Shown: positions 1 to 22,196, numbered from the stretch's first letter. The stretch is DNA of 29,715 nucleotides from Thermodesulfobacteriota bacterium (GCA_034189305.1 JAXHUS010000343.1:1-29715); one strand, 5' to 3'. The notes: a model not told the origin generated them from the sequence alone. Numbers and translations are program-made.

Positions 1-116
1 GTGGCGAAGACCCAGATGTCGGCCTGGCACATCCTGGGCAGCAGCACCTGCATATCGTCCTGCTGCCAGCACCGGCCCGGCGTCTTCAGCCAGCACACGA
101 AGTCGCCACGGCACGG
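1..116 (-). other. GC-rich fragment of an iron-sulfur flavoprotein / NADPH-dependent FMN reductase (flavodoxin-like) gene, fused in frame to the PKS; probable chimeric end
   Basis: Minus-strand translation PCRGDFVCWLKTPGRCWQQDDMQVLLPRMCQADIWVFA(T) fits the Cys-x2-(Cys/Asp)-x2-Cys-x5-7-Cys...DDM...AD..VFATP pattern of that family. Hand count gives 78/116 G+C (67%) versus 16/60 (27%) at 121-180. Confidence 0.75.
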
Positions 117-3100
117 GAATTTTTCAAGAACATAATTTGTAACCTTATTCTTTTTATCCCCTGTTACAATAACAGGAAATTCAGGAGGTAGGGGCACGGA
201 TAGCGAGTCAAGGGGTATTTCTTTTGTATCCAGGACGTATCTTTTAATTTCCGGTAAGGCAACTGCTTCACCAGGGGCATCTTTTTTGTCCTGGTGTGAG
301 GCTTTATTATCGGCTGTACGACTTTGATTAAGTTCTGTTTCCGGCAGATCCGACCCCGCCTCCTTTGATAACCAGTTTATCATGCCTCCAAGAGTTTTTA
401 TCTTTGAGGCCTGCTCCATGTCTAAATCAAAACTATCCCCCATCTTTTCTTCAAGTACCTGTCTTAAATGTCCTAAAATCTCAATCTTCTTTATGGAGTC
501 AATGCCGAGATCCGCCTCCATATCCAGATCAATGTTCAACATTTCCAGGGGATAACCGGTACGTTCTTCTACAATTGCAAGCAGACGCTCAGAAATTTCC
601 TTATGGTTTAATATAACTTCATCCTCTGGAGCAATACATTTCGCTTCCGTCTTTTTATCCGGTATGACCTCCCCGGCGGATGATTTTAGCTGTGAAATTA
701 TATCCCTGAGGGTAGTACTTTTTGAAAGGCTTTCCATCTCCGGATTGACAGAATCTATTCCACTTTTTGCAATTTCGTCTTTAAAGGTTCCGATAATCTC
801 TATTTTTTTGATGGAATCGATACCCAGATCTGCTTCTAAATTAAGATCCAAATCCAGCATTTCAGCAGGATACCCGGTTCGCTCACTAACTATACTTAAG
901 AATCTTGACTCTATATCATAAAGGTTATCTGTTTCCCTCTCTTTAGTTGATACCTCTTCTGAAACAGGAGGCATTGCCTTTCGGTCCGAAGCAGATGACG
1001 GGAAAGTTTCCGCCTGAAGATTAGGATTAAAATTAATAGTTGCAGATTTTGCTAATTCTTCTCTGGTTATGGATTCTTCTTTCCTGGGAGAAATTGTAGC
1101 TGAATCAGATACAACACTTTTCCTTTCCATGTTTTCGCCGCTCAATACAGGAGGACTTACGGTCTGTCCCTGCAGGTAGGCAAGCATTACATTTTTTTGC
1201 GTATCTAAAAACTGGCTCATTAATTTCTGAAACTGAATGATAACCTTTTCATCAGATGGGGATTGAAATTCATTCGATGGTTTTTCTTTTGCCGTAAATT
1301 GTTCCATTTTCTCCTCAAAAATGTCTTCAATATAATTATTTTTTACATCAGTAAGAGGCATTCCTTCGTGAGTTTCCTTCCTGTATTCGGCAGAATCTGC
1401 AAAACAGATTGGACGGGGTGAAAAATTTTCCCTGGAATTTTTATCTAAAGGTTGTATTCCTGAGCCATTTAATAAACATATTGTTTTTGAGGCTTCTTTA
1501 TGATTTGTATCTAAAGCCAGGCTTTCCAGCCTGAGTTTTTTGCATTGTCTATAACGGTATAGGGGTTCCATATCCATCTCAACACCTGAAGCAGCAAGTT
1601 GAGCAACTGTATGTTGCAACTGGACAAGGGCGGAACTACCCTTTCTATCAGTATAAATGGTAGTGTGGGGTTTTTTGCTTAAAATCCTGTCTATAAGCTT
1701 ACTTAGTATATTGCCGGCGCCAACTTCAATAAAAATCCTTGCCCCTGCATCATATATTGCTTCAATCTCCTCTACAAACCGGACAGGACTTACAAGTTGT
1801 CTGACAAGAAGATCGTAAACGGCTTCTTTACCTTCAGGATAGGGGGCTGCCGTTACATTAGAAAATACAGGTATAACCGGTTTTTTAAAATCGAAACTTC
1901 TGATAAATTTTTGTAGTTTCTGTTGAGCGCCCGACACAATCGGGCTGTGAAAGGCACAGGCCACAGCTACCGGGACGGAAGTTATCCCTTCTTCCTTTAA
2001 TCGTTCCATTGCCTTTTCAACAGAAATATTTGTACCGGTGATAACTGTCTGGAGCGGTGAATTGAGATTGGCAATCCATACATTATCAATGTTTCCTATT
2101 ACATTTTTAACTTCATCTTCTCCTGCCTTAACTGCCGCCATTGTTCCGGGTTCCGATCCGGCCGCCTCCAGAATAAATCTGCCCCTGGCCTCCGAAAGAA
2201 GAGCCAGTGCTTCTTTAGAAAAAACTCCGGCAGCATGCAGAGCAACATATTCTCCATAACTATGTCCCGCCACCATATCCGGTTTTACCCCAAGACGCAC
2301 AAGGAGTTTATGCACGGCCAGGTCCGCCGCTCCCATGGATGCCTGGGCTATATTTGTCCGGATAAGTTCTCTGTCAACTTCTTTTCTTTCCTCTTGCGAA
2401 AAAGAAGGGGGTGGATAAATATATCTGCTTAGGGGTAACGGCAATATCTCATTTAGAAAGCCGTCAAATTCCTCAAATACTTCTCGTACCTGGTCAAAGT
2501 TGACAGACAGATCATTAAGCATTCCAACATATTGTGAGCCCTGGCCAGGATATAGAAAGGCAAGCCTGCCCCTTTTTGCGTCAGAGGTTTCTTTATAATA
2601 GATTCCGTCACCGGTCCAGATCTCTTTTTTCTCTGCATCAGCCAGGTCAGCCTTTGCCGTTATCAGTTTCTTATTTAGATCATCCAGGGAATCCGCCACA
2701 ACTGCAAGGCAATATGTCGGCACTTTTTTATCAATAGAGGTAAGGCTGAATGCCAAATCTTTTAAAGAGGGTTTTGCACCGTTTTTCAATGCCTTTTGCA
2801 GGTTTTCCATTGCTTTTATAATGTCGGGCTTTGATTCTCCTTTAAAAATAAATACTTCGGAAGGCCACTGGTTGATAGTATATAAAGAATTTCTTTCCTG
2901 GAAGGGATCGATATATTCTTCCAGAACCGTGTGAAAATTTGTTCCGCCAAAACCAAAAGCACTCACACCCGCCCTGCGTGGATGATTATTATTAATCCAG
3001 GGCCTTGTTTCCGTATTTACATATAATGGACTTAAAGGTTTATTGATTTCAGAATTTGGTGTTTCTACACCAAGGGTAGGGGGTAGTACCCGGTTATACA

Positions 3101-6100
3101 AAGCCAGTACCGTCTTTATAAGACCTGCAATGCCGGCTGCACATTTTGTATGACCGATCACTGATTTTACCGATCCCAGGGCACAACTTTTAGGAAGCAT
3201 GGGAGTTTCGGAAAAAAATTTATTGAGGCTGAAGGATTCCGTTTTATCCCCTGCAGTGGTGCCTGTACCGTGAGCTTCTATCAATCCGATGGTTTCAGGA
3301 TCAATGTCAGCATTTTCATAGGCCCGTTGTAAAACCAGAACCTGCCCTTCAGGTCTGGGGGCAACCAACCCTTTTGCCTTACCGTCGCTTGATGAGGAAA
3401 TTCCTTTAATTACAGCATAAATTCTATCTCCATCCCTTACGGCATCTTGAAGTCTTTTAATGATTATGGCTGCTACTCCTTCGGCTAAAACTATTCCGTC
3501 AGCTTTTTCATCAAAGGGATGACATTTACCGGAAGGGGAAAGGGTTCCCGTTTTACTGAAGCAGGTATAAACATAAGGGCTCATAAGGGTATCAGCTCCG
3601 CCCACGATTACCATATCGGCTTCTTTAACCTTAAGTTCCAGAATTCCTGCCCGCAATGCTGCCAGTGAAGATGCACATGCTGCATCAACTGAATAATTTG
3701 AACCTCCTAAATCAAAACGATTGGCAATTCTTCCCGCTGCAACATTCATAAGGACTCCGGGAAAAGAGTCTCCAGTCCACTGAGGAACAGCAGTTCCAAG
3801 CTCCGAGAGAATTTCTCCCGAGCTTTCCCCAAAAAAATAAGGTAATGCCGAACGAAAGCTATAAAGTTGAGCCAGATCAGCTTCTCCCCCCCCCGCACCA
3901 ATAACTACCGCAGCCCTTTTACGGTTAAAGGGACGGGTTAGATAGCCTGAGTCTGCCAAAGCCGAATGTACACTTTTTAAAACAAGCAACTGCAAAGGTT
4001 CTATGTAATCTAAAGTATTGGGCGGGATGCCATATTCAGATGGATCAAAGGTAATATCAGGAATAAACCCGCCCCATTTTGAATTAATTTTATCCTTTGT
4101 CTTATAGTCAGGGTCATAATAAAGTTTCCAGTCCCATCTTTTTTGCGGAATTTCCTCAATGGCACTGACTTTTTCCGTAATATTATGCCAGTATGTCTGG
4201 AGATCCGGCGATTTGGGGAAAATACATGCCATACCGATTATGGCAATATCAACTGGCTCACTTTTGCCTTGTATATTTTTGGTACTATTTTTCTGGTTTA
4301 TATGAAGGTTTTGTAGTCTTTCAGAACTTTTTACAGTGATGTTATGATGCAGTTCTCTCATGGAAAGGATTTTATCCTGTAAGGCTGCCACCTGTCCTAT
4401 CATATAAAGCCCTTCTTTTTGTTGCTCCGTTTCTTCTATCGTTATATATTCTTTATCTTTGGACTCGCCTTTTTCTTCCATATAATGGGGATTTCTTTTA
4501 ATTCCTTTCGTAGCTATTTGAAGCCTTCCAAGGTTCATTCTTTCTAATGTTTCTCGAATTTCATCCCCTGTTTTTCCTTGCCTTTGTAATTTTGATTTTT
4601 CCCCTTCAAAATAGTCTACATATGGACTATTTATACAACGGACAGCGTGGCCCGGACCTGAAGAAATCAGCACAGTTCTTTTGCATTCAATGGCCTTTTT
4701 CTGAAAATTATCCGATATTGCCATGGATTTTACTGCTTCTTTTGTAAATAAGTAAGCGGTTCCTATCAAAATACCCACCTGGATTCCCTTTTGGGCCAGT
4801 GTAGCAGCCAGTGCCCCAACCATAGAGGCGGAAAGGGCGTCATGTATACCCCCTGCAAAGAGAATTTTATACGACTCCGTATCGTTCTCTTTTGAGATGT
4901 GTTCTAAAAGAACTTCAATGGCAGTCTCCCACAAAATAAAGCTGGATAACGGCCCTACATGCCCGCCACATTCACGTCCTTCAAAAATGAACCGTTTGCC
5001 TCCACTCTTAAGGAACATTTTTAAAAGAGGTGCAGATGGAACATGAATATAACTGATAATACCGTTATCCTCGAAATATTGAGCCTGTTTCGGCAATCCT
5101 CCGGCAATTATGACAAAGGGCGGGCGATAGCGAAGTATAGCTTTTTGTTGCTCATCTTTAATCTCCTGGGGGGCAAAACCTAAAATTCCAACTCCCCATG
5201 GATAACCTGATAAAACATGCCGAGCGTCTTTTAATAAATTTGTTAACTTCTCCTGAACCATCAAACCAAGGGCAAAAAACGGTAGGGCTCCGTTTTTAGC
5301 AACTTCAAAAGCAAAATTGGCATTATCACTCACCCGGCTCATAGGCCCCTGAACAATAGGAAAGGAAGTGCTGTGAAATTCTGCAATTGGAGAATTTTCT
5401 CTGAAGAGATCCTGCTTCCCCGCAAGCCGGCTGTGCTGCTGTATGGCCTCTGTAAGCCCTTTAAGCACACCTCCTACAGTATGAAATTTATGGGCCAAAC
5501 TTGATGCAAGAATTGTATCCTGCCCCAAAAAAAGCAGGTTATCTTCCCAGGAATTCCATCCGGCCAGATCAGATAATGTTTTATGCCACTTTTTTATATT
5601 TGTATCTGATAGGCCGCTCTCAATAAGTTTTTCCTCTTCTTTTTGAATCTTTTCAATTAAATGAATATTCTGTTTATTATAAACCCTGTAAAGTTCGCCC
5701 AATTTATTTCCTGTACAATCCGTTTCACTGCCATCCATAAGCGCAATTCTTGTCTTTATTTGATCAGGCAGGGGAGATTCCCTGGTCAGTAAGAGCTGTG
5801 AATCCAGAACTACTCCGGATGCTCCCGCTGCATAACAGGCTGAGGCGGTATGCAAACCTATTCCCCCCTGTACCCAGACAGGGAGTGTGAGGTCAGCTAA
5901 AAACCGCTGCAGTAAAATAAAAGCCGTCTCATTGCTTACCCAGCCTCCCGCCTCATTCCCTTTGGCAATTACTCCGTCAATTCCTAGATCTTCCCCCTTT
6001 TTTGCCTGTTTAAGACAGGTAGTTTCTAAAATTATCCTGTACTTTTGTTTCTGAAGAATTTTTACCAATGTATATAGATTTTTTATATTCTTGGCAGGCA

Positions 6101-6356
6101 ATACAAAAAATTTAAGGCCCGGGGGCGGAGTGCTGATAATTTCCCTTATCAGATCCGGTGAATAGATATCCACTTTTATTCCAAAGTCCTCTTCACTGTA
6201 CTTCCCAAGCTTAAAAATTGCATCAAGGGCAACATTTCTATTGTTGACATATTCCAGATCTAATATTCCTATTGCTCCGTTCTTTGCCGCTGCATTAACC
6301 ATTGCCGGTGAAGGTAGACAAAAAGGGGTAATAATTAAAGTTTGAAAATTTTTCAA
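117..6356 (-). CDS. Type I iterative FAS/PKS (Pfa/Ars-like): ER-like x2 - KS - AT - ACP - ACP - start of probable KR region; 3' partial, about 2,080 aa visible
   Basis: Absent from the ORF track because there is no stop in the window. TTG start at 6354-6356 follows an AGGGAGG RBS. The motifs I indexed lie in one frame: FabK-like EAGGW (5940) and ECGGH (4959), KS Cys in SVDAACASS (3675), ACP LGIDSIKK serines at 813 and 495. Also read: KS EAHGTGT and KSVIGHTK; AT PGQGSQ, GHSYG and AFHS. Confidence 0.93.
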
Positions 6357-6398
6357 TATAGAACCTCCCTTTTTAATAGTTTAATTCTTTTTCCATTG

Positions 6399-6416
6399 TG
6401 CAAAAGTAATGCCAAC
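6399..6416 (-). promoter_or_regulatory. Sigma-54 (-24/-12) promoter for the PKS
   Basis: Minus strand reads GTTGGCATTACTTTTGCA, with canonical GG-N10-GC spacing, about 43 bp upstream of the TTG start. The 17-bp core is identical to that at 9249-9265. Confidence 0.85.
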
Positions 6417-6487
6417 CATAAATAAATATGTAACCAATTGAAAATAAAGTAAAAATTAAATTTTTTATACTGATCATTTTTTCCTGC

Positions 6488-6503
6488 TGGAGATTTTTAG
6501 CCA
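6488..6503. promoter_or_regulatory. Putative enhancer (bEBP) site, TGG-N10-CCA
   Basis: TGGAGATTTTTAGCCA; 15/16 identical to 9340-9355 and at an equivalent distance (88 vs 91 bp) from the sigma-54 box. Confidence 0.65.
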
Positions 6504-6603
6504 ATACTTTAAAAAATATCTTTCATAATCCAAATTATAAGTATTTATAACTGTCATACATATCCAAATTTAGATAAAGGATGCCGTCCTCTTATTTGTT
6601 ATC

Positions 6604-6619
6604 AGGCTAAATTTAACCA
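6604..6619. promoter_or_regulatory. Putative enhancer (bEBP) site overlapping the stop codon of the CLF-like gene
   Basis: AGGCTAAATTTAACCA; 14/16 match to the perfect palindrome at 9449-9464; offset from the sigma-54 box is 204 vs 200 bp. Confidence 0.6.
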
Positions 6620-7902
6620 TTAATAATTAAAGCGCTGTTTTGTCCGCCAATTCCCTGATTTATTGCCATGAACGTACTACATTTATATTTTCGGGAATAA
6701 TTTGGGACATAGTCCAGATTACATTCGGGATCTGGATTTTCATAATTTATTGTCGGAAGAATTATCCCTTTTTTTAAGGAATACAGAGAAATTATCGTCT
6801 CAATTGCTCCTGAGGCACATCCGGTATGACCAAGGGAACCTTTTAGAGAACTCATGGGAATTTTATAAGCATGCCTGCCAAAGACATTTTTTACAGCAAT
6901 GCTCTCAATCCTGTCATTTTTTATAGTTCCTATACCGTCAGCATTAATGTAGTCAATTTTTTCCCGTGAAATGCCGGCATTTTCGATTGCTCTTTCCATG
7001 GCCCTTATCAAGCCGAACCCTAAAGGACATGGCTCAAACAGATGGTAAGCGCTTGCAGCATTTCCATATCCAATTATTTCACCATAAATTTTTGCATTCC
7101 TTGCCTTTGCATGTTCAAGTTCCTCTATTACTAAAAAACCGGCCCCTTCACTTGCCACCAGACCATCTCGATAGAGATCGAACGGACGGCAGGCTCTATT
7201 TGGGTTTTGTGAAAGGGAGGCCATATTAAGACTATAAAAAGTGAAAATGGTATTTGGAAAAATCAGGGAATCATATCCACCTGCCAATATTATATCGGCA
7301 TCACCCCTCCCAATACATCTAAAAGCCCTCCCTATGGCATCAGCGCCGCCTGTATAAGTATTTACTATATTATAATTTTCTCCTTTTATATTATATTTTG
7401 AAGATAAATAATATATTGCATTATTAGGTAACATTTTTAAAAGAAAAAGAGGATGAACAGAGTTTTGACCGTTCTCGCCAAATTTTCTGGATTTAAATTT
7501 CTGAAAATTATTATCCCATGCCTTTAATAAACCACAGGATATATCTTCAGAAAAAGGAGCCCCATCAAATCCCGAACCACCGGATCCGGTAATAACACCA
7601 AAGTATTCCGGTTTAACTTTTTTTGTTTCAAGTTCTGAATCTTCAATTGCCATTCTGGCAGCGGATAAAGCAAACTTAACATTGCGAAAAATAAGTTCCA
7701 GACAGAATTTGTCATCAATATATTTTTTGTGATTAAATTTATGAATTTCACCTGCAACTTTCACCGGATAGTCATTTGTATCAAAAAAGGTTATATTTTT
7801 TATCCCTGATTCTCCGTCAGCAATTTTTTGCCAATTTTCTAAAACTCCCTCTCCTAATGGGGAAACTATACCCAATCCTGTAATTACCGCTCTTCTAACC
7901 AT
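6613..7902 (-). CDS. FabF-like ketosynthase homologue lacking catalytic residues (chain-length-factor-like)
   Basis: FabF-like throughout (RRAVITGLG, RPFD..RDG, SEGAG, GHTG), but the active-site TAC(S/A) is replaced by NTYTGG (Cys->Tyr) and NAHGT by NADGIGT (His->Asp). Confidence 0.88.
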   Translation of the reverse strand: MVRRAVITGLGIVSPLGEGVLENWQKIADGESGIKNITFFDTNDYPVKVAGEIHKFNHKKYIDDKFCLELIFRNVKFALSAARMAIEDSELETKKVKPEYFGVITGSGGSGFDGAPFSEDISCGLLKAWDNNFQKFKSRKFGENGQNSVHPLFLLKMLPNNAIYYLSSKYNIKGENYNIVNTYTGGADAIGRAFRCIGRGDADIILAGGYDSLIFPNTIFTFYSLNMASLSQNPNRACRPFDLYRDGLVASEGAGFLVIEELEHAKARNAKIYGEIIGYGNAASAYHLFEPCPLGFGLIRAMERAIENAGISREKIDYINADGIGTIKNDRIESIAVKNVFGRHAYKIPMSSLKGSLGHTGCASGAIETIISLYSLKKGIILPTINYENPDPECNLDYVPNYSRKYKCSTFMAINQGIGGQNSALIING

Positions 7903-7920
7903 AACTTCCCCTTTGTTATT

Positions 7921-9204
7921 TCAATTTGTATATCTTTCAATTATTATACTGTTATTTTGTCCTCCAAAGGCAAAAGAATTGGAAAGGATAGCGTTCATTT
8001 CCCTTTCAGCCGCAAAATTAGAAACATGGTTTAAATCACAAAAGGGATCAGGCATTTCAAGGTTTATTGTTGGAGGAACAATATTGTTTATGAGTGTTTC
8101 AACACTCATAATAAGCTCTACTCCCGCTGCTCCGGCAATTAAATGACCTATCATGGATTTATTCGAGCTAATAAGCACCTCATAAGCTTTTTTACCAAAT
8201 ACCTTTTTTATAGCAGAAGTCTCGCTTCTATCATTTATCAACGTTGAGGTGCCATGAGCATTAATATAGTCAATATCATCGGGAGTTTTCCTTGCGTCTT
8301 CCAGAGCCTTTTTTATGGAAATATCAAGACCACTCCCATCAGGGCTACAATCAGCTATTCTGTATGCGTTTGAAGAAGTACCGAATCCAGTAAGTTCCGC
8401 TAAAATATTGGCTTTTCTTCTTCTGGCATGGGTTAATTCTTCAATGACGACTATTCCCGCCCCTTCACCGATTACAAAACCATCTCTATTTAAATCAAAT
8501 GGTCTGCTTGCCTTCTTTGGTTCCTTGTTGTTCTTTGATAAAGCGCCAAGAAGGCTTAATCCCGTATATGCGAACTCATTTATAAGGGAATCGCCTCCGC
8601 CTGCAAGCATTATATCTGCATCGCCAGATTCAATAGTCCTCATTGCAATACCTATAGCATGTCCACTTGATGAACATGCAGTAACTGATGTATAATTGGG
8701 ACCTCTGGCATTATAGATAGTTGACAGCATTGTAGATGGTATGTTTGCACTCCGTCTTAACGGCCAGATCCTTCCTAAAAAATTTGAATCATCAAAATAA
8801 TGCCTGCCGGTTATAAGGGAATCATAAATTTTTTCCTCTCCAAACACCTCCTCGAACTGGGAAATAGAAATATACTCTTCTCCGGTTCCTAATGAGATTC
8901 CAAATTTAAATGGATCGATTATGTCTATATCAATCCCTGATGAAAATATAGCCTCTTTTGCAGCAGCAGTTATAAAGAAACATGCTCTGCTCATAAAATT
9001 CTGTTTTGCTCCAAAATCTTTAAATACTGAAAAATCAAAGTTTTTTACTTCTGCTGCTATTTTAGTCTTAAAGGTGGAGGCATCGAAAAGGGAAACAATA
9101 TCCACACCGGAAGTACCCGAAATTAGCGCCTCCCAGCTGTCTTTCACATTGAGTCCTAAAGGTGTAACAGCCCCCATTCCAGTTATTACTGTTCTTCTTT
9201 TCAT
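7921..9204 (-). CDS. fabF: Beta-ketoacyl-ACP synthase II-like, catalytically intact KS
   Basis: Cys-His-His triad present: TACSSSG, INAHGTST, KSMIGH; C-terminal SNSFAFGGQN. Confidence 0.92.
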   Translation of the reverse strand: MKRRTVITGMGAVTPLGLNVKDSWEALISGTSGVDIVSLFDASTFKTKIAAEVKNFDFSVFKDFGAKQNFMSRACFFITAAAKEAIFSSGIDIDIIDPFKFGISLGTGEEYISISQFEEVFGEEKIYDSLITGRHYFDDSNFLGRIWPLRRSANIPSTMLSTIYNARGPNYTSVTACSSSGHAIGIAMRTIESGDADIMLAGGGDSLINEFAYTGLSLLGALSKNNKEPKKASRPFDLNRDGFVIGEGAGIVVIEELTHARRRKANILAELTGFGTSSNAYRIADCSPDGSGLDISIKKALEDARKTPDDIDYINAHGTSTLINDRSETSAIKKVFGKKAYEVLISSNKSMIGHLIAGAAGVELIMSVETLINNIVPPTINLEMPDPFCDLNHVSNFAAEREMNAILSNSFAFGGQNNSIIIERYTN

Positions 9205-9247
9205 TTTTGTTTTTATTATTGTTTAAATTTAATCGAAGTTAAGGTAA

Positions 9248-9265
9248 AGCAAAAGTAATGCCAAC
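9248..9265 (-). promoter_or_regulatory. Sigma-54 (-24/-12) promoter for the KS/CLF pair
   Basis: Minus strand reads GTTGGCATTACTTTTGCT, 44 bp upstream of the fabF-like ATG; identical 17-bp core to 6400-6416. Confidence 0.85.
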
Positions 9266-9339
9266 TAACAATAAAGATACAAACTGTTGTAAATAAATAG
9301 AATATCTTGTATTTTTGCATATTGCGGTTCATTATCCAT

Positions 9340-9464
9340 TGGAGACTTTTAGCCAGAAATTAATTAAAAGCCTTTAAAAACGCAAAATTTATAATATCTG
9401 TCAATTGATTGGTTAGATTTGGCCAGGAGAATGCAAATCTTTTATGTTTGGTTAAATTTAACCA
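9340..9464. promoter_or_regulatory. Three TGG-N10-CCA putative enhancer sites (9340-9355, 9410-9425, 9449-9464)
   Basis: TGGAGACTTTTAGCCA, TGGTTAGATTTGGCCA and the perfect palindrome TGGTTAAATTTAACCA, upstream of the sigma-54 box. Confidence 0.65.
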
Positions 9465-9646
9465 AAATTATTCTATTACCCGGCCTCATAAATTTTGTAC
9501 ATATAATGGCAAATTAATATGTTTTAAGGGGCCAGTTTTTTAATTTCTATCTTCCTATTATTGAATAATCCGCAAGATTTTTTATAACTACGCATTCTGT
9601 TTTAAAAGACGGTTTAATATATATCTAATAAATATAATTTAATTAC

Positions 9647-9675
9647 TTGACAAAAAAAATATATATCATTAACAT
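9647..9675 (+). promoter_or_regulatory. Sigma-70-type promoter upstream of sat
   Basis: Perfect TTGACA (9647-9652), a 17-bp spacer, then TAACAT (9670-9675). Confidence 0.55.
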
Positions 9676-9697
9676 AATGAATGAGCAATCATTCATT
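9676..9697. promoter_or_regulatory. Palindromic operator (TetR-family-like)
   Basis: AATGAATGA-GCAA-TCATTCATT: perfect 9-bp inverted repeat immediately downstream of the predicted -10. Confidence 0.65.
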
Positions 9698-9947
9698 GGC
9701 TGAAAAAAATAAATCTTCTTTAAAAACATTTTTTCTTATACAATATGATTAGTTAAAATATCCCAAGGAAAACATTCTAAAATTTGTTTGGTTTATTTAC
9801 ACATTAAAAAACAATAAGAAATTGAAGTAAAATTCATTAATAAGAAAGGAGGATGCACAAAGTAAAGTAATATAAAGAGAAGATTAGAAAAGGTTGAAAA
9901 AGAATTAAGTTTATGCAAATATTTAACAGAAAAAAAGGAGGCTTATA

Positions 9948-11135
9948 ATGATTAAACCGTTTGGGTCGGATAAGTTAAACCCATTATATGTTCAGGATGA
10001 TTCGAAACGCGAGTCTTTGATCAAAGAAGCTGCAAATTTACCTTCAGTTGTGGTATCTTCCGCTGCGGCCGGAAATGCCGTCATGTTGGCGTCCGGCTAT
10101 TTTAACCCCCTTACAGGGTATATGAACGTGGCCGATGCAAAAAGTGTTGCTGAAAAAATGCAAACAACTTCAGGCCTGTTCTGGCCTACACCTATTATGA
10201 ACGTAATAAAAGATGCTTCTGCCATCAAAGGTGCAAAACGTATAGCACTTCTTGATCCCAATGTTGCAGGTAATCCGGTACTGGCTATTCAGGATGTTGA
10301 GGCAATCGAAGAAATGAGCGAAAATGATATGAAGTTGATAACAGAGAAAGTTTTTCGCACTCTGGATATGAATCATCCTGGAGTTGCGGCTTTCAATTCC
10401 GTAGGGAATATAGCCGTTTCAGGTCCTATTCAGGTTTTAAACTACTCTTATTTTATTACCGACTTCCCTGGAACATTTCGTACCGCCACTCAGCTCAGGG
10501 ATATAATTGCCAAAAGGGGTTGGAATGAAGTAGTTGCGTTTCAGACCCGAAATCCAATGCACAGGGCACATGAAGAACTTGTTAAAATGGCAATGAAAGC
10601 TAACAATGCAGATGGTGCTATAATTCATATGTTGCTTGGTAAACTTAAGAAAGGCGATATTCCTGCCGATGTTCGGGATGGTTGTATCCGTAAGATGGTT
10701 GAACTATATTTTGAGCCTAACTCAGTTGAAATAGCTGGTTACGGGTTTGATATGTTATATGCAGGTCCTCGTGAGGCAGTATTACATTCCATCTTCCGGC
10801 AGAATATGGGCGCTACTGTCCTGATAGTCGGTCGTGACCATGCTGGTGTAGGTGACTATTACGGTGGTTTTGATGCTCAGGTGATATTTGATGAGGTTCC
10901 GGAAGGAGCGCTTCAAATTAAAATTTTCAAAGGAGACCATACAGTATGGTGCAAAAAGTGTAATCAAGTGGTTATGATGCGCGATTGTCCCCATGGCAAA
11001 GATGACTATATAATGCTTTCCGGCACCAAAGTTCGTGCAATGTTAGCCGCCGGTGAAGCCCTGCCTACAGAATTTGCACGTCCTGAAGTAGCTGCCATTT
11101 TAATGGATTACTATAAAAAGGAAGCTGCAAATTAG
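9948..11135 (+). CDS. sat: Sulfate adenylyltransferase (ATP sulfurylase)
   Basis: Motifs VVAFQTRNPMHRAHE, LYAGPREAVLH, GRDHAGVG, SGTKVR and RPEVA; metal-site motif C-x2-C-x8-C-x-H (CKKCNQVVMMRDCPH); strong AAGGAGG RBS. Confidence 0.96.
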   Translation: MIKPFGSDKLNPLYVQDDSKRESLIKEAANLPSVVVSSAAAGNAVMLASGYFNPLTGYMNVADAKSVAEKMQTTSGLFWPTPIMNVIKDASAIKGAKRIALLDPNVAGNPVLAIQDVEAIEEMSENDMKLITEKVFRTLDMNHPGVAAFNSVGNIAVSGPIQVLNYSYFITDFPGTFRTATQLRDIIAKRGWNEVVAFQTRNPMHRAHEELVKMAMKANNADGAIIHMLLGKLKKGDIPADVRDGCIRKMVELYFEPNSVEIAGYGFDMLYAGPREAVLHSIFRQNMGATVLIVGRDHAGVGDYYGGFDAQVIFDEVPEGALQIKIFKGDHTVWCKKCNQVVMMRDCPHGKDDYIMLSGTKVRAMLAAGEALPTEFARPEVAAILMDYYKKEAAN

Positions 11136-11167
11136 AACAATAGATATATTATACTAAAAAGTAATTA

Positions 11168-11204
11168 ATGCACTGAAAATGCAATTTAAGCATTCTCAGT
11201 GCAT
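11168..11204 (+). terminator. Stem-loop after sat (possible terminator or stabilising hairpin)
   Basis: ATGCACTGAAAATGC / GCATTCTCAGTGCAT: 15-bp stem with one mismatch and a 7-nt loop; no clear U-tract. Confidence 0.5.
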
Positions 11205-11602
11205 CCGGATCCGTCAAGCCTTAATAAGTAATTTACGCCGTAAAACTACCTTTTAAGTTTATAAATTTCTTCTTTTTTAATAACAGAGTTTCCTTAAAAA
11301 TTTTTATATAACTGCTCCAAGCCAATTTTCCCTCAGAAATAAAGGGCTCTGGCAAAACTCAGGAAACTCCTGTTTTAATGTTTTTAATATCTTTGCCAAT
11401 ATAACTTAAAAATGGTAATTTATTTTATAATAGTTTCCATGTATCGGTTGTAATATATACCTTTTTTAAAAGTCTTGAAAGGTCAGGCAATAATTGCCAA
11501 TGTTCAATAACCATTAAACGTTCAGACGTCAAACCTTTTTCTGAATCACGTCAACTGATTCTGGTATTAAGTTAAAAAAATTATTTAACAAAATTACAAG
11601 TA

Positions 11603-12649
11603 ATGAAAATATTAATTGTAAAACTCAGTTCCATTGGAGATGTTGTTCATACTTTACCTGTCCTCCCCGCAATCTTAAATAAATTGCCAAAAGCAAAAAT
11701 CGACTGGTTGATTGAGGATGAGGCAACGGAACTTGTCACAGACCATCCCCTTTTAAATAAGGTTATTATTTTTTATCGCAGGCATTGGATAAAAAATTTT
11801 TTCTTTGCAGATTTCTTTAAAACACTCAGGGAAGTTAAGGACTTTTTTCACTTTTTAAGGGAGGAAAAATATGACCTTATCATTGATTTTCAGGGACTTT
11901 TCAAAAGCGGAATTTTAACCTTTTTTGCAAAAGGGAAAAGAAAGCTGGGATACGATAAGACACGGGAATTGAGCCATATCTTTTTAAATGAAAAAATTCC
12001 TCCCTGTAATATAGAAAATCACGCTGTAAAAAGGTATTTGAATCTTCTAAAACCCTTAAATATAGGAATAACAAGCCCTGAATTCCCTCTTCCATGTCTA
12101 AATGGGGCTGCAATATGTGTAGATAAACTTTTTTCTGAAGCCGGAATCAACAAATTTAAACCTATAATATCCATAAGCCCTGCAAGCAAGTGGGAAAGCA
12201 AGACATGGGGTACTGAAAAGATTGCGGTTCTTTCTGACAGACTTATAAAATATGGAATGCAGGTAATTTATACCGGGAGTGAAAAAGATACTTTATTGGT
12301 TGAAGATATAATAAGTTTCATGAAGGAAAAACCGATCAATTTGTGTGGAAAAACATCGTTAAGGGAACTGATTGTTGTTTTTAAAAAGTCAAGACTGGTT
12401 TTAACTGTTGATTCAGGTCCAATGCATATTGCCGCCGCCGTACAGACTCCGTTGGTAGCATTATTCGGACCCACATCACCCGGGCGAACCGGGCCATACA
12501 GTCATAAAGCAACTGTAATTCAAAAAAATATATCCTGTAGCCCCTGTTTTAAAAAAAGATGCTCCCACAAGAGCTGTCTAAATGAAATTTCCGTGGAAGA
12601 AGTTTTTCAACAGATATCGGTTAAAATAGAAGAGGAGGAAAAAATATAA
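11603..12649 (+). CDS. waaC: GT9 LPS heptosyltransferase (WaaC-like)
   Basis: N-terminus MKILIVKLSSIGDVVHTLP, then DFQGLFKS, DSGPMHIAAA and LFGPT; typical GT9. The WaaC vs WaaF assignment is tentative. Confidence 0.8.
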   Translation: MKILIVKLSSIGDVVHTLPVLPAILNKLPKAKIDWLIEDEATELVTDHPLLNKVIIFYRRHWIKNFFFADFFKTLREVKDFFHFLREEKYDLIIDFQGLFKSGILTFFAKGKRKLGYDKTRELSHIFLNEKIPPCNIENHAVKRYLNLLKPLNIGITSPEFPLPCLNGAAICVDKLFSEAGINKFKPIISISPASKWESKTWGTEKIAVLSDRLIKYGMQVIYTGSEKDTLLVEDIISFMKEKPINLCGKTSLRELIVVFKKSRLVLTVDSGPMHIAAAVQTPLVALFGPTSPGRTGPYSHKATVIQKNISCSPCFKKRCSHKSCLNEISVEEVFQQISVKIEEEEKI

Positions 12650-12711
12650 GGTTTATTTGTATTTATCATGACTACAATTTATAATTCTTCATAATAATTC
12701 AGGAGGAAAGA

Positions 12712-12882
12712 ATGTCCATAAGCAAAGAATTATTAGATATTTTAGCCTGTCCCAAGTGCAAGGGGAGCATTTACTTAAACAAGGAAGCCAATGGTCTTAT
12801 ATGTGACCATTGTAAATTGCTCTATGAAATAAAAGACGATATCCCTATAATGCTTATTGATGAAGCAAAAAAAATTGACTAA
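12712..12882 (+). CDS. Trm112-like / YcaR (UPF0434) small zinc-finger protein, 56 aa
   Basis: Below the ORF-track cutoff. MSISKELLDILACPKCKG...LICDHCKLLYEIKDDIPIMLIDEA matches the family pattern; AGGAGG RBS. Confidence 0.9.
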   Translation: MSISKELLDILACPKCKGSIYLNKEANGLICDHCKLLYEIKDDIPIMLIDEAKKID

Positions 12883-12894
12883 AAGATATGCATA

Positions 12895-14409
12895 ATGGCA
12901 AAAATTCTTTTTATCTACCCCAATCTTAATACCCAGGTGGGTTTCAATTATGGCCTTGCGTATATTTCCGGCGTATTAAAAAAGGCGGGACATGAAACCA
13001 GACTATTAAATATTAATGAAGACCTGGGCTATCCTCTTGATTTTTCCCGGATAAAATCCGATATAATCTCTTTTTCTCCGGATTTAATCGGATTTTCCGC
13101 CCTCACCAACCAATTCAATTATATAGAAGAAATTGCCCGAAAGATAAAAGGAACTTTCAAAATTCCCATAATCTGCGGAGGCATCCATGCCACCATGGAC
13201 CCTGAGGGGGTTTTAAATACCGGTCTGTTTGACTATGTGTGTGTAGGAGAGGGTGAATATGCCCTCCTTGAACTACTGGAAAGTTTGAAAAAAGGCATTC
13301 CCTCATACAATATTCCCAACATCTGGTACAGGACAAAAGGGGAGATTATAAAAAATAAGGTACGTCCCTTTGTTGACCTTAACAGCCTGCCCTTTAAAGA
13401 CTATGAATTATTTGACTTTCAGAACATTATAAAGGCTAAAAACGGTTGGGTTGGCCTCATGACTTCAAGGGGCTGTCCATTTCGCTGCTCTTACTGTTTT
13501 AACCACCAGATGGTTAATATTTATAAAAAAGATCTGGGTATAAAGTCGGAATCAAAAGGGCTGAATTATATGCGCAGGCATCCTTTAAAGGAGATAATAT
13601 CCGAGATAAAATATTTAAAAGAGCATTATCAAGGTATCAAAACTTTTATTTTTGATGACGACCTCTTTACCTTAAATAAAGATTATATAATTAAATTTTG
13701 TGAGGCTTATGCCAATAATTTTGATATTCCTTTTGTAGTGAACGCCCATGTGAAAGTTTTTGACAGGGAAATTGCCGGCCATCTTAAAGAAGCGGGATGC
13801 CAGATAGTAAAGTTCGGCCTGGAAAGTGGAAGTGAAAGGCTTAGAAGAAAAATATTAAACAGGCAAATGACTAATAGGGAAATTTTAGAAGCATTTAACA
13901 ATGCCCATGAGTTTAACCTGCATTCATCAGCCTTTGTTATTATAGGTTTTCCTTACGAAGAGAGAAAAGATCTTTTAGCCACCATAAAACTACTGTCACA
14001 AATTAAGCCTGGAAGATTTCGCTGGTCAATCTTTTTCCCTTATATTAATACGGAAGCGTATAATATCAGTAAAAAAGGAGGATTTATTGATTTTAAAAAA
14101 ATGGAAAGTTTAAGTAACTTCACTGACTGGTCATGTCTTAAATTTTCTCCTTACCATGATCTGTTTATCAAAAAACTGAAAATGGCACTTCACTGGTATG
14201 TCAACGGCCTGTCGGATTTTCCGTCTTCATCCACTTATAAAAAATTGGTTGAAGAAATTGAGAATATGGATTTAGAAATGTGGGAAAGATTTTCAAAGGA
14301 CTTATTCATCAAAGATGAAAAAATCTCAAGTTCTCTACAAAAGGTAGGCAAAGAGCATTACGCTATTAAATATAATGATTTTATGGCTGTAAAGATTGAA
14401 AATAGTTAA
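12895..14409 (+). CDS. Cobalamin-dependent (B12-binding) radical SAM protein
   Basis: N-terminal B12-binding-like domain (GLAYI...PDLIGFS...GGIHAT...VCVGEGE), CxxxCxxC in RGCPFRCSYC, then FDDDLF and FGLESGS. Confidence 0.9.
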   Translation: MAKILFIYPNLNTQVGFNYGLAYISGVLKKAGHETRLLNINEDLGYPLDFSRIKSDIISFSPDLIGFSALTNQFNYIEEIARKIKGTFKIPIICGGIHATMDPEGVLNTGLFDYVCVGEGEYALLELLESLKKGIPSYNIPNIWYRTKGEIIKNKVRPFVDLNSLPFKDYELFDFQNIIKAKNGWVGLMTSRGCPFRCSYCFNHQMVNIYKKDLGIKSESKGLNYMRRHPLKEIISEIKYLKEHYQGIKTFIFDDDLFTLNKDYIIKFCEAYANNFDIPFVVNAHVKVFDREIAGHLKEAGCQIVKFGLESGSERLRRKILNRQMTNREILEAFNNAHEFNLHSSAFVIIGFPYEERKDLLATIKLLSQIKPGRFRWSIFFPYINTEAYNISKKGGFIDFKKMESLSNFTDWSCLKFSPYHDLFIKKLKMALHWYVNGLSDFPSSSTYKKLVEEIENMDLEMWERFSKDLFIKDEKISSSLQKVGKEHYAIKYNDFMAVKIENS

Positions 14410-15439
14410 TCCGCAAAAGATAATAATCCGTACCCCTAACTGGCTGGGAGACCTCATTATGGCAATTCCGGCCTTTAACGCAATAAAGCAAAAGTTTACC
14501 AGGGCAGAAATTACCCTTCTCATAAAAAAACCTTTAGTAAAAACTTTAAATAATAGTACTTTTTTTAACAACATCATAGAATTCGATCCTGAAAATCTTC
14601 ACAGGGGTGTGAAAGGCTTTATAAGACTGCTGGGAGAATTGCGCAAAGAAAATTTCGACCTTTGTATACTATTTCCAAAATCTTTCAGTTCTGCAATTAT
14701 TTTCTTTTTATCAGGCATAAATATTCGCTGGGGCTTTAACTGCAATGCCAGAGGTTTTATGCTTACCAATAAAATTCCGCTGCCCGACAAAATAATTCCA
14801 ATGGTTGATCTCTATCTGAATTTAGTGGAAGGATTAACAGGAGGATGTCAGGAAAAATCTTTTACTCTTTCTACCTCCCATGAGGAAAAAATGAGATTAG
14901 AAAATATCTTTTTTCAGCATAATATGAATAATCAAAAAATTATTTCAATAATACCAGGGGCTTCATTTGGTAGTTCAAAATGCTGGAAAGAAGAATATTT
15001 TTCACGACTTGCAGATTATTTAATAGGGGAATATAAGGCTCAAATTCTGATTTTACCAGGGCCCGGAGAAGAAGGGATCGCCAGGGAAATTGCAGGGAAA
15101 ATGGAAAATAATTGTGTAGTCATTGCAGATCCGCCATTACCCCTGGATATGCTTAAAGCAGCGATAGAAAAAAGCTGGCTTGTTATATCAAATGATACAG
15201 GGCCCAGGCATATTGCTGCCGCATTACAAAAGCCGGTAGTGGTAATAATAGGTTCTACCGACCCTGGATATACAGATTATGAATATGATAAAAAGCTTAT
15301 AATAAGAAAAGAGCTTGATTGCAGTCCCTGTCATCTTAAATCCTGTCCAAAAGAACATGATTGCATGAAACTTATTACCCCGGAAGAAGTTTTTTCCAGA
15401 ATAAAAGATTTTGTAGGTAAAAGAAGCATGGAAATGTAA
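14396..15439 (+). CDS. waaF: GT9 LPS heptosyltransferase II (WaaF-like)
   Basis: IIIRTPNWLGDLIMA, PGASFGSSKCW and SNDTGPRHIAAA; TTG start overlaps the radical SAM gene by 14 bp. Confidence 0.85.
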   Translation: MKIVNPQKIIIRTPNWLGDLIMAIPAFNAIKQKFTRAEITLLIKKPLVKTLNNSTFFNNIIEFDPENLHRGVKGFIRLLGELRKENFDLCILFPKSFSSAIIFFLSGINIRWGFNCNARGFMLTNKIPLPDKIIPMVDLYLNLVEGLTGGCQEKSFTLSTSHEEKMRLENIFFQHNMNNQKIISIIPGASFGSSKCWKEEYFSRLADYLIGEYKAQILILPGPGEEGIAREIAGKMENNCVVIADPPLPLDMLKAAIEKSWLVISNDTGPRHIAAALQKPVVVIIGSTDPGYTDYEYDKKLIIRKELDCSPCHLKSCPKEHDCMKLITPEEVFSRIKDFVGKRSMEM

Positions 15440-20716: not shown

Positions 20717-21718
20717 GTGAATAGAGAGAAAATGAATAAAATGGAAAGGCTTATATCTAACTTTAATAAGGCTAAAATCGGTGTTATAGGCGATATTGTT
20801 GCAGATTTTTACGTCTACGGCAAACCTTTCAAGCTTTCAAGGGAAGCTCCGGTTCTGGTAATTCGCCATGACGGAGAAAAGATTATTCCTGGAAGTGCAG
20901 GAAATACAATTAATAATCTGGCCTGTCTGGAAGCAAATGTATACCCGGTGGGAATTATAGGTAATGATAAAGAAGGGGAAGCAGTTATTAACTGTTTTGC
21001 CGGAAAAAAGGTTGTCCTTTCTGGAATTGTAAAGGATAGATCATGGGTTACTATAAGTAAAACAAGGATAATGGCAGGAGATGACAATACTTCAAAGCAG
21101 CAGGTAATCCGCATAGACAGGGAACCAATGAAAAAGATAACAACAAAAATGGAAAAAAGGATAATTTCCAACTTAAAGGACATTGCCGGTGAGATTGATG
21201 CTTTAATTGTTGCTGATTACAGCTACAATTTAATTACACCTGTTATATTAAAGGAAATTTTAGCAATAGCCAGGAAAAAAATTGTTGTTGTTGACTCCCA
21301 TCATCAACTGAAAGATTTTAAAGGAGTACATATTGTCACTCCCAACCAGGGAGAAGCAGAAGAAGCTACAGGAATAACTATAAAAAATGATCGGGATTTA
21401 GAACAGGCGGGGGAGAAACTGCTAAAAGGTTTAAAAAGCAAGGCTGTTTTAATAACAAGGGGTAATGCAGGAATGGCACTATTTGAAGTCGGAAAAAATA
21501 TGAATAAAATACCCATTTTTGGAAGGGATGATATTACTGATGTAACAGGGGCGGGGGATACTGTGACTTCTGTATTGACCCTAGCGCTGGTAGCTGGAGC
21601 ATCATTAATAAAGGCGGCATATCTTGCAAATTATGGTGCATCTGTTGTAGTTATGAAAAGAGGAACTGCCACTTTAACAGGAGAGGAACTATTAAAAAGA
21701 ATTAAGAAAGATGAATAA
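20717..21718 (+). CDS. D-glycero-beta-D-manno-heptose-7-phosphate kinase (RfaE domain I / HldA-like, PfkB family)
   Basis: SREAPVLV, PGSAGNT, VTPNQGEA and PfkB motif DVTGAGDT; GTG start after an AGGAGG RBS. Confidence 0.9.
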   Translation: MNREKMNKMERLISNFNKAKIGVIGDIVADFYVYGKPFKLSREAPVLVIRHDGEKIIPGSAGNTINNLACLEANVYPVGIIGNDKEGEAVINCFAGKKVVLSGIVKDRSWVTISKTRIMAGDDNTSKQQVIRIDREPMKKITTKMEKRIISNLKDIAGEIDALIVADYSYNLITPVILKEILAIARKKIVVVDSHHQLKDFKGVHIVTPNQGEAEEATGITIKNDRDLEQAGEKLLKGLKSKAVLITRGNAGMALFEVGKNMNKIPIFGRDDITDVTGAGDTVTSVLTLALVAGASLIKAAYLANYGASVVVMKRGTATLTGEELLKRIKKDE

Positions 21719-22196
21719 AATAATACAGAATGAAAAAATTTTGATGGAAACCATTGAAAATTTGAAAGCTTCTGGAAAGACAATAGTTTTTACAAATGGC
21801 TGTTTTAACTTACTTCATGTAGGCCATATAAGAAGCTTAAAGGATGCTAAAAATCTGGGTGATGTGCTAATCGTGGGAGTAAATGATGATAAATCGATTG
21901 AGTATTTAAAACGCGACAAATACCCCCTGATAATTCCCGTTGAAGAGAGAATGGAAATTTTAGCTGCTCTTAGTATGGTAGACTATGTAATCCGATTTTC
22001 TGAATTAAGTGCAGATAATTTACTATTAAAGATCAGGCCGCAAATATATGCAAAAGGTACTGATTATACTAAAGATTCTGTACCTGAAAGGGATACTGTC
22101 CTATCATACGGAGGGGAAATAGAAATTGTAGGGGACCCGAAAGAACATTCAGTAACGGAATTATTTAACATTTTAGGCCGGCAAAAGGGGGCATAA
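21711..22196 (+). CDS. Heptose-1-phosphate adenylyltransferase (RfaE domain II / HldC-like)
   Basis: VFTNGCFNLLHVGH (HxGH), GVNDDKS and KGTDY; overlaps the kinase gene by 8 bp. Confidence 0.9.
   Translation: MNKIIQNEKILMETIENLKASGKTIVFTNGCFNLLHVGHIRSLKDAKNLGDVLIVGVNDDKSIEYLKRDKYPLIIPVEERMEILAALSMVDYVIRFSELSADNLLLKIRPQIYAKGTDYTKDSVPERDTVLSYGGEIEIVGDPKEHSVTELFNILGRQKGA

Follow-up and report, generated by a model that had tools for sequence, protein, structure and literature searches.

The closest described relatives of the gene cluster discussed here are the secondary lipid synthases catalogued as types M–P, which share the arrangement ER-KS-MAT-ACP(1–2)-KR / KS-AT-PPTase / ACP (Shulse & Allen 2011, PMC3098273 supplement). 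In this notation, ER is enoyl reductase, KS ketosynthase, MAT or AT (malonyl) acyltransferase, ACP acyl carrier protein, KR ketoreductase, and PPTase phosphopantetheinyl transferase. Their hosts are Frankia, Streptomyces avermitilis, Actinosynnema, Renibacterium, Chryseobacterium, Dinoroseobacter, and Parvularcula (PMC3098273), and the PPTase motifs P1a, x(G/D)xP, and P1b', hShxH, have been assigned to the M–T branch (PMC3098273). Only type P, the Ars synthase, has a known product: C22–C26 fatty acids, which are handed to type III polyketide synthases (PKSs) for the formation of alkylresorcinols (PMC4824345). ArsA of Azotobacter vinelandii is given as ER-KS-MAT-ACP-KR, type P (PMC3098273 supplement); the ArsA and ArsD architectures used here come from that supplement, where ArsD appears only as “PPTase”. 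Here, we describe a cluster of this kind in a 29,715-nt stretch from a Thermodesulfobacteriota metagenome-assembled genome (MAG; GCA_034189305.1, JAXHUS010000343.1:1–29715). We refer to the whole stretch as the window; it is contig C272, counted from its first base. In the window, a doubled-ER megasynthase lies directly downstream of a FabF-like KS and a catalytically dead FabF-like KS. On balance, we consider it probable that this is an Ars-like synthase cluster to which a KS pair was recruited in this lineage only, the pair probably being co-activated with the synthase and forming a heterodimer, which may act on the carrier proteins of the cluster. With the added pair and its copied sigma-54 promoter, the locus varies a known theme within one lineage and does not represent a new pathway class.

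All three genes, KS, dead KS, and megasynthase, are on the minus strand in the open reading frame (ORF) listing of the window. The megasynthase gene, gene A, continues onto a second contig, C91, and its parts are as follows:

118–6356, minus strand: 5' part of megasynthase A, amino acids 1–2079 of 2872, ER1-ER2-KS-AT-ACP-ACP (Pfam, NCBIfam)
5637–6311, minus strand: ER1, a FabK/NMO-like barrel (PDB FabK matches to amino acids 16–240; Pfam NMO 49.7 bits, over the cut-off)
4335–5405, minus strand: ER2, a FabK/PfaD-type enoyl reductase (Pfam NMO, amino acids 322–674; PDB FabK matches)
2763–4250, minus strand: type I KS domain with C-terminal extension (Pfam; motifs DAACASS, EAHGTG, and IGHTK)
1656–2558, minus strand: acyltransferase domain (Pfam/NCBIfam; GHSYGE with the active-site Ser, and the AFHS motif)
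381–881, minus strand: two tandem ACP domains (two Pfam PP-binding stretches)
contig C91, L003:2–2497, same reading frame: 3' part of megasynthase A, KR and PKS-type dehydratase (DH), by the join to C91
1–117, no strand: chimeric contig end, outside the megasynthase gene (GC content, depth, divergence from C91)

The domain reading ER-ER-KS-AT-ACP2, first proposed from the sequence alone, is borne out by Pfam and NCBIfam, which give two NMO matches over the Pfam cut-off, then KS, AT, and two PP-binding stretches. The type I KS has its Cys and both His motifs intact, and the tandem ACPs carry Ser 1848 and Ser 1954 in LGIDS motifs. In ER1 the motif reads GGW (window 5946–5948, amino acid 137 of P0001), with Trp standing in for the catalytic His of the GGH motif of FabK-type reductases, and two same-class homologues, G014 and G037, have GGR at this motif; because the catalytic His is replaced, we read ER1 as probably a non-catalytic partner of ER2, which keeps GGH at amino acid 464. 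The doubled ER resembles the ER heterodimer that is reported for thraustochytrid polyunsaturated fatty acid synthases (PMC13311796).

The genes originally proposed between positions 117 and 9265 are all present, but the window cuts gene A, which runs onto C91 with KR and DH. As assembled, the ORF is 3'-open, extends over 6356..3 (minus strand), and includes foreign bases at the contig end. Positions 1–117 are foreign GC-rich sequence joined in frame to the megasynthase ORF: their GC content is 67.5%, versus 41.6% for 118–6356, and in X1, the public run that is the probable source of the assembly, they sit on a separate 3182-nt contig with a depth of 256 versus 13 for the remainder (~20-fold). 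The Cys-rich stretch that they encode could be mistaken for an extra C-terminal domain. Contig C91 shares window 118–237, diverges beyond it, and carries the reading frame onward, and one 16.2-kb Logan contig from X1 runs from window 5987 through 118 and then for 10.4 kb more. Read jointly, C272 and C91 give a full megasynthase A of 2872 amino acids, ER1-ER2-KS-AT-ACP-ACP-KR-DH, so that all domains of a KR-DH-ER reducing loop are present in the type I part.

On C91, gene A is followed on one strand by these genes, in order:

C91, same strand as A: subunit B (P0005), KS-AT-DH-PPTase, 1623 amino acids, KS and AT motifs intact
L003:7389–7669, same strand as A: discrete ACP, 93 amino acids, LESID serine motif
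C91, same strand as A: Phosphodiest/AlkP-family protein, 534 amino acids
C91, same strand as A: secreted protein, no family assigned, 514 amino acids
C91, same strand as A: alpha/beta hydrolase

Gene B starts 17 nt past the stop of gene A, and PS-DH-type DH and ACPS domains are recognised in its product, with the PPTase motifs NGKP at amino acid 1467 and LSISH at amino acid 1486 of P0005. The original prediction saw no discrete ACP, which is correct inside the window but does not hold for the cluster, where an ACP gene lies two genes downstream on C91; the ACP protein alone has no Pfam or NCBIfam match, and its homologues occupy the same position in 8 other loci.

Set against the published types, gene A has the N-terminal ER followed by KS-MAT-ACP(1–2)-KR (two NMO domains, KS, AT, and two PP-binding domains, with the KR on C91), P0005 is the KS-AT-PPTase protein directly downstream, and a discrete ACP (L003:7389–7669) follows the second synthase as in types M, N, and O. 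The NGKP and LSISH motifs of B fit the P1a and P1b' definitions of the M–T branch. Judged by these features, the core belongs to the Ars-like secondary lipid synthases of types M–P, which had been catalogued before. The earlier idea that the combination was uncharacterised therefore fails at the core, since types M–P are catalogued and ArsA/ArsD are characterised (PMC3098273). A full-text literature search for such domain architectures gave no match.

The cluster shares with ArsA/ArsD an N-terminal FabK/PfaD-type ER fused to KS-AT-ACP-KR and a second protein that carries the PPTase, and by analogy it would likewise be an iterative, malonyl-fed system with a full reducing loop. It differs in having two ACPs, a discrete ACP, a hydrolase, a phosphodiesterase-family gene, and the upstream KS pair. 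In the Ars system, the type III PKS genes arsB and arsC lie between the synthase genes, whereas here A and B adjoin, and a search for a type III PKS (Chal_sti_synt_C) in the cluster and in the 80%-complete genome found no match. Because no type III PKS was found in the genome, the locus is not the Ars system proper. Regulation also differs: ars is under ArpR/RpoS (PMC4824345), while control here looks sigma-54-type. Types M, N, and O (Frankia, Streptomyces avermitilis, Chryseobacterium, and Dinoroseobacter) have the same gene order and the same PPTase motif class as this locus. Relative to the published listing, our annotation splits the “ER” into two barrels and gives each protein an additional DH domain. 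None of those types is described with a stand-alone KS/dead-KS pair.

By alignment of the ER-ER region, the core occurs in 78 species loci from many phyla, and the doubled ER is kept in all of them. The taxa include Solirubrobacteraceae, Obscuribacterales/Melainabacteria, Bryobacterales, Planctomycetota, Dehalococcoidia, and “Deltaproteobacteria” MAGs, with Actinomycetota among the phyla, and the hosts also include the cultured Ruegeria profundi, Haloechinothrix halophila, and Amycolatopsis arida. Domain mapping gives ER1-ER2-KS-AT-ACPn-KR(-DH), nearly always with KS-AT-DH(-PPT) directly 3'. Past gene B, the loci of G037, G014, planctomycetes, and actinobacteria again have the discrete ACP and the hydrolase, and in G037 and G014 the phosphodiesterase-family gene and the secreted protein are kept as well. 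A sub-type in L032, L062, L066, L082, and L064 has gene A followed by a separate PPTase, a GNAT-like protein (Acetyltransf_9), and a ~580-amino-acid protein with no family, which replace the KS-AT-DH-PPTase gene. ER-KS-AT-ACP-KR / KS-AT-PPTase clusters are thus widespread (78 species), with a product known for one only.

What sets the locus apart is the KS pair in front of gene A:

7921–9204, minus strand: active FabF-like KS (P0003), 427 amino acids, Cys-His-Lys-His intact (Pfam/NCBIfam)
6613–7902, minus strand: dead FabF-like KS (P0002), 429 amino acids, Cys to Tyr and first His (His1) to Asp, Lys and second His (His2) kept

P0003 is upstream of P0002, 18 nt apart, and 256 nt separate the dead KS from the megasynthase ORF. 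The claim of an active and a catalytically dead FabF upstream on the same strand is upheld by the ORFs, the catalytic residues, and a contig that crosses the junction. The stretch is covered by Logan contigs from X1 and X2, two samples of one study, and the X2 contig (1279 nt, window 6125–7403, one base differing) reaches from within the dead KS across the intergenic region into the start of the megasynthase. Because the X2 contig spans the junction, we judge the adjacency to be real. An assembly artefact is ruled out by the same bridging contig.

Neither protein is the housekeeping FabF. The FabF equivalog model TIGR03150 gives 428 and 402 bits for the window KS genes against a cut-off of 493.75, and both fall outside the housekeeping clade, which consists of G000 C217 and its orthologues, one per genome. 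That identity was rejected on the sub-cut-off scores, the separate clades, and the loss of Cys and His1 from P0002. An aromatic type II PKS chain length factor (CLF) was likewise rejected, as P0002 has Tyr where such a factor would have Gln in place of Cys, and FabF proteins are the top PDB matches. Both KS proteins score 321–329 bits to Bacillus subtilis FabF, versus 174–270 bits to the chains of 1tqy, 6kxd, and 6smo. In a score comparison only, P0002 gave 259 bits to 9s5h_B and 182 bits to 9s5h_C; this PDB entry holds two different KS chains and is probably the anammox heterodimer.

A search with the dead KS of 5.8 billion protein clusters returned 43 clusters at 45–53% identity, followed by a gap to canonical FabF-like proteins. 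In all 44 family members (P0002 included, the others being P0013–P0055), Tyr or Phe replaces Cys and Asp replaces His1; Lys is kept in 44/44 and His2 in 43/44. Because this residue pattern recurs throughout the 44 members, the Y/F-D-K-H set reads at the sequence level as a selected family, not decay. Named sources include “Deltaproteobacteria bacterium DG_8” and a Candidatus Anammoxibacter MAG; we found no published description of a Y/F-D-K-H inactive FabF family. Among relatives (neighbourhood loci among L115–L119 and L122–L125), all seven neighbourhoods examined are type II clusters and share the layout KS-(KS)-dead KS-(Shikimate_DH-like thioester reductase)-FabG-ACP-(ACPS)-FabA/ApeI-like dehydratases-KS, with ACPs of 132–137 amino acids and no NMO or type I synthase within 10 kb. 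Five of the seven adjoin a divergent histidine kinase and sigma-54-dependent response regulator. The occurrence of this family in sigma-54-linked type II clusters, from Desulfobacterota-like MAGs and at least one anammox genome, widens the recent claim of chain-length factors in fatty-acid-type pathways.

The host genome holds a second KS pair, on contig C445 (L013 35–8117), in the order KS, divergent second dead KS, dead KS, thioester reductase, FabG, PlsC-type acyltransferase, condensation-domain protein. P0003 and P0002 are each 72% identical to their C445 counterparts, and a maximum-likelihood tree places each as sister to its counterpart with 100/100 support, in clades shared with G012 and G037. 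From the 72% identity and the sister placement, it follows by sequence that the window pair is a within-lineage duplicate of the type II module, minus the middle KS and all accessory genes. The C445 reductase resembles the N-terminal half of PigE, and the product of that cluster may be a fatty aldehyde, alcohol, or ester lipid.

Two described kinds of KS pair are comparable. First, the anammox proteins amxFabF2 and amxFabFmut are active only as a heterodimer, which decarboxylates malonyl-ACP and prefers C6–C8 chains (bioRxiv 10.64898/2026.05.19.726425). Here, as there, a FabF-derived active KS adjoins a FabF-derived inactive paralogue. By contrast, amxFabFmut has Val or Thr and has lost both His, whereas the dead KS here has Tyr and Asp and keeps His2; the gene order is reversed, and no radical SAM or phytoene-desaturase-like genes are attached. 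From sequence, the origin of the pair looks independent of amxFabF2/amxFabFmut. Second, type II PKS pairs (actinorhodin, ishigamide Iga11/12, AntD/E) also consist of an adjacent active KS and inactive partner, here a predicted dimer, but in the pair here the Cys position does not carry Gln, cyclases and aromatases are lacking, and both proteins are closer to canonical FabF. In a fold test, P0003/P0002 scored 0.95, against 0.00 for the best control, at a mark reached by 51/78 solved complexes and 2/108 mismatched pairs; such a pass is expected for any FabF-like pair, does not distinguish heterodimer from homodimer, may reflect FabF dimers already familiar to the predictor, and is given little weight here. 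The earlier description of a KS/CLF-like pair stands to this extent: with the fold test and the anammox precedent, a KS/CLF-like heterodimer of P0003 and P0002 is plausible, although any FabF-like pair would be expected to pass.

Both the pair and the synthase are preceded by a predicted promoter:

9340–9355, minus strand: second TGG-N10-CCA, candidate site, its spacing from the box matching that of the first
9249–9264, minus strand: second identical sigma-54 box, 45 nt 5' of the P0003 KS start codon
6488–6503, minus strand: TGG-N10-CCA, candidate enhancer-binding-protein site ~85 nt 5' of the box, a conserved alignment block
6400–6415, minus strand: sigma-54-type −24/−12 box, TGGCAT-N5-TTGC, 44 nt 5' of the megasynthase start codon

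The identical sigma-54 boxes that had been proposed are exact: the 16-mer TTGGCATTACTTTTGC, of pattern TGGCAY-N5-TTGC, is present exactly twice in the window, and two matches appeared in 0/100 shuffles. The two promoter regions align over ~190 nt with 77% mean column identity, and both predicted promoters have the spaced GG/GC elements and upstream candidate activator site of sigma-54 promoters. Between the dead KS and the megasynthase, no intrinsic terminator was found and there was no excess of sigma-70-like promoters; an Rfam search of window 1–12000 gave no RNA family match. Near-copies of the box occur elsewhere in the host genome before unrelated genes, e.g., on C41. Relatives were compared for the ancestry of the synthase's box: G014 has a one-mismatch box 60 nt upstream and G037 has none, counts no better than chance. 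On C41 (L096 602–1736), a box with one mismatch stands before genes for a secreted protein, which has WxxGxxGxI-type repeats, and for a membrane protein. The gene directly 5' of this box encodes a protein with an NtrC-type HTH at its C-terminal end, and this protein is a candidate activator of such promoters.

The account that we consider probable would run as follows. The B-subunit PPTase would activate the ACPs, as extrapolated from ArsA/ArsD, and the two KS-AT sets with the KR-DH-ER loop would then work iteratively on the ACPs of A, joining malonyl units into an acyl chain that is long and largely saturated and that the hydrolase or a later enzyme would off-load. The FabF-derived KS/dead-KS pair would have been duplicated from a sigma-54-controlled type II cluster, of which C445 is the copy, and placed directly upstream of the synthase. 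The ~190-nt promoter with its identical box now stands before both the pair and the synthase; given the shared promoter sequence, the same activator probably switches on both. Read-through from the pair into the synthase may also occur, as no terminator was found between them. Because its native ACP, FabG, and dehydratases are missing here, the pair most likely works on the carriers of the cluster, either the discrete ACP or the tandem ACPs, where we infer that it would prime the chain or change its length. A functional coupling of the pair to the synthase is thus plausible from the sequence evidence. A type II pair bolted onto this core would be a natural experiment on the control of chain length and priming in such synthases; should the coupling prove not to be real, what remains is an ordinary annotation, a cluster of known type with a paralogue beside it.

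Several observations, in addition to the limits of the fold test given above, weigh against this account. Most directly, the association is rare. The original prediction had named weak co-occurrence of the synthase and the KS pair as grounds for its own rejection, and co-occurrence is indeed nearly absent: among the 62 of 78 loci that hold at least 3 kb upstream of the synthase, a stand-alone KS is found upstream in one, from a Bryobacteraceae MAG (L030), and the reverse look-up finds a type I synthase in 0/7 neighbourhoods of dead-KS relatives. The same-class relative G037 has no KS upstream, the upstream gene there encoding an unrelated secreted protein; G014 has none in the 950 nt between its contig start and the synthase, a stretch too short to tell. 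The KS pair is therefore not a conserved partner of the megasynthase core. The case for coupling consists of adjacency and promoter similarity in one MAG (80% complete, 580 contigs), and the C272–C91 join is based on a 120-nt overlap and a single Logan contig from the probable source sample. RNA runs were searched for the locus, and it was found in none. Lastly, the “long saturated chain” is extrapolated from a single characterised type, Ars.

The alternative that best survives is that the pair is independent of the megasynthase. It would be a spare C445-type copy using the ACP, reductase, and FabG of C445, and the shared promoter would reflect one sigma-54 regulon; the pair could then be working for the C445 type II system, or else for fatty acid synthesis in general. 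In all 7 neighbourhoods, the dead-KS orthologues belong to type II clusters that are complete in themselves, with no type I synthase alongside, the association is missing from 61/62 synthase loci and from G037, and similar boxes precede unrelated host genes, as on C41. Against this, the window copy is without the middle KS and all type II accessory genes, and an intact, diverged (72%) pair has been retained, which suggests selection in its new place. Moreover, the promoter similarity extends over ~190 nt, beyond the box alone, and no terminator was found between pair and synthase. We regard independence as less likely than the recruited-pair account, of which it is the main rival.

A bolder form of the recruited-pair account is a type I/II hybrid, in which the Y/F-D-K-H heterodimer would dock on Ars-like carriers, set the primer or final chain length under one sigma-54 activator, and give a lipid that neither system would produce by itself. 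We hold this to be doubtful in its full form. If it is true, the KS upstream of the ER-ER megasynthase in L030 is a second, independent instance. In L030 (6098–19808), the KS lies directly upstream of an ER-ER-KS-AT-ACP4-KR gene; there is no KS-AT-DH-PPTase gene, and PHP-domain and metallo-beta-lactamase-fold genes come next.

Improbable, in our estimation, is the stronger hybrid in which the type I synthase hands a finished chain to the KS/CLF pair for conversion into a polyene or a head-to-head membrane lipid. It would explain the adjacency, the shared promoter, and the lack of an ACP of the pair's own in the window, and in L030 an independent stand-alone KS of the same clade as the window KS lies directly upstream of an ER-ER megasynthase. 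However, that KS is without a dead partner and on a long branch, and in the gene order at our locus the pair comes before the synthase. Biochemical study of a FabF-derived KS/CLF is limited to one case, which acts at initiation and on short chains (bioRxiv 10.64898/2026.05.19.726425), and for both KS proteins the scores to FabF exceed those to polyene or aromatic KS/CLF structures. The originally proposed polyene product also finds no match in the synthase, which has no polyene-type features and whose type I part has a full KR-DH-ER loop.

That the cluster is a polyunsaturated fatty acid (Pfa) synthase is highly improbable: the PfaA model TIGR02813 is the best NCBIfam match of both megasynthases, but all three scores (947, 283, and 635 bits) are under its cut-off of 1010, a PfaC-type KS-CLF that bears tandem FabA-like dehydratase/isomerase domains is missing (the DH domains present are all PKS-type), the ER is fused and doubled, and the PPTase has a non-PUFA P1b' motif.

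The host genome is a 3.0-Mb MAG in 580 contigs, 80% complete, from a marine metagenome. The species genomes searched include no relative of the same family; by RpoB, the named genomes that come closest (~70% identity) are Desulfobacteria/Thermodesulfobacteriota MAGs. The genome has dsrAB, and the hydrazine synthase alpha domain was not found in it at 80% completeness. By these markers, the host is a deep-branching sulfate-reducer-like lineage, not an anammox bacterium, and an anammox/ladderane affiliation is ruled out by the missing hydrazine synthase domain, the RpoB relatives, and dsrAB.

Elsewhere in the window, lipopolysaccharide inner-core genes flank the lipid locus at 11603–15439 and 20717–22196; they comprise two family-9 heptosyltransferase genes around a B12-binding radical SAM gene, and split RfaE kinase and adenylyltransferase genes. 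A transposase-like ORF of 384 amino acids (27529–28683) is close to the far end of the contig. Genes for sulfur activation turn up repeatedly close to these KS genes. The sat gene lies at 9948–11135 on the plus strand, divergent from the KS pair; it was not adopted as a pathway member, as dsrAB is present and sat is therefore probably dissimilatory. In L030, the stand-alone KS has a sat-cysC fusion (6098–7870) on its upstream side, and sulfotransferase genes end two of the type II clusters related to the dead KS (L123 from 21277; L125 18343–18813). A sulfated lipid may be a lead, although the host genome also has an APS kinase and a sulfotransferase elsewhere.

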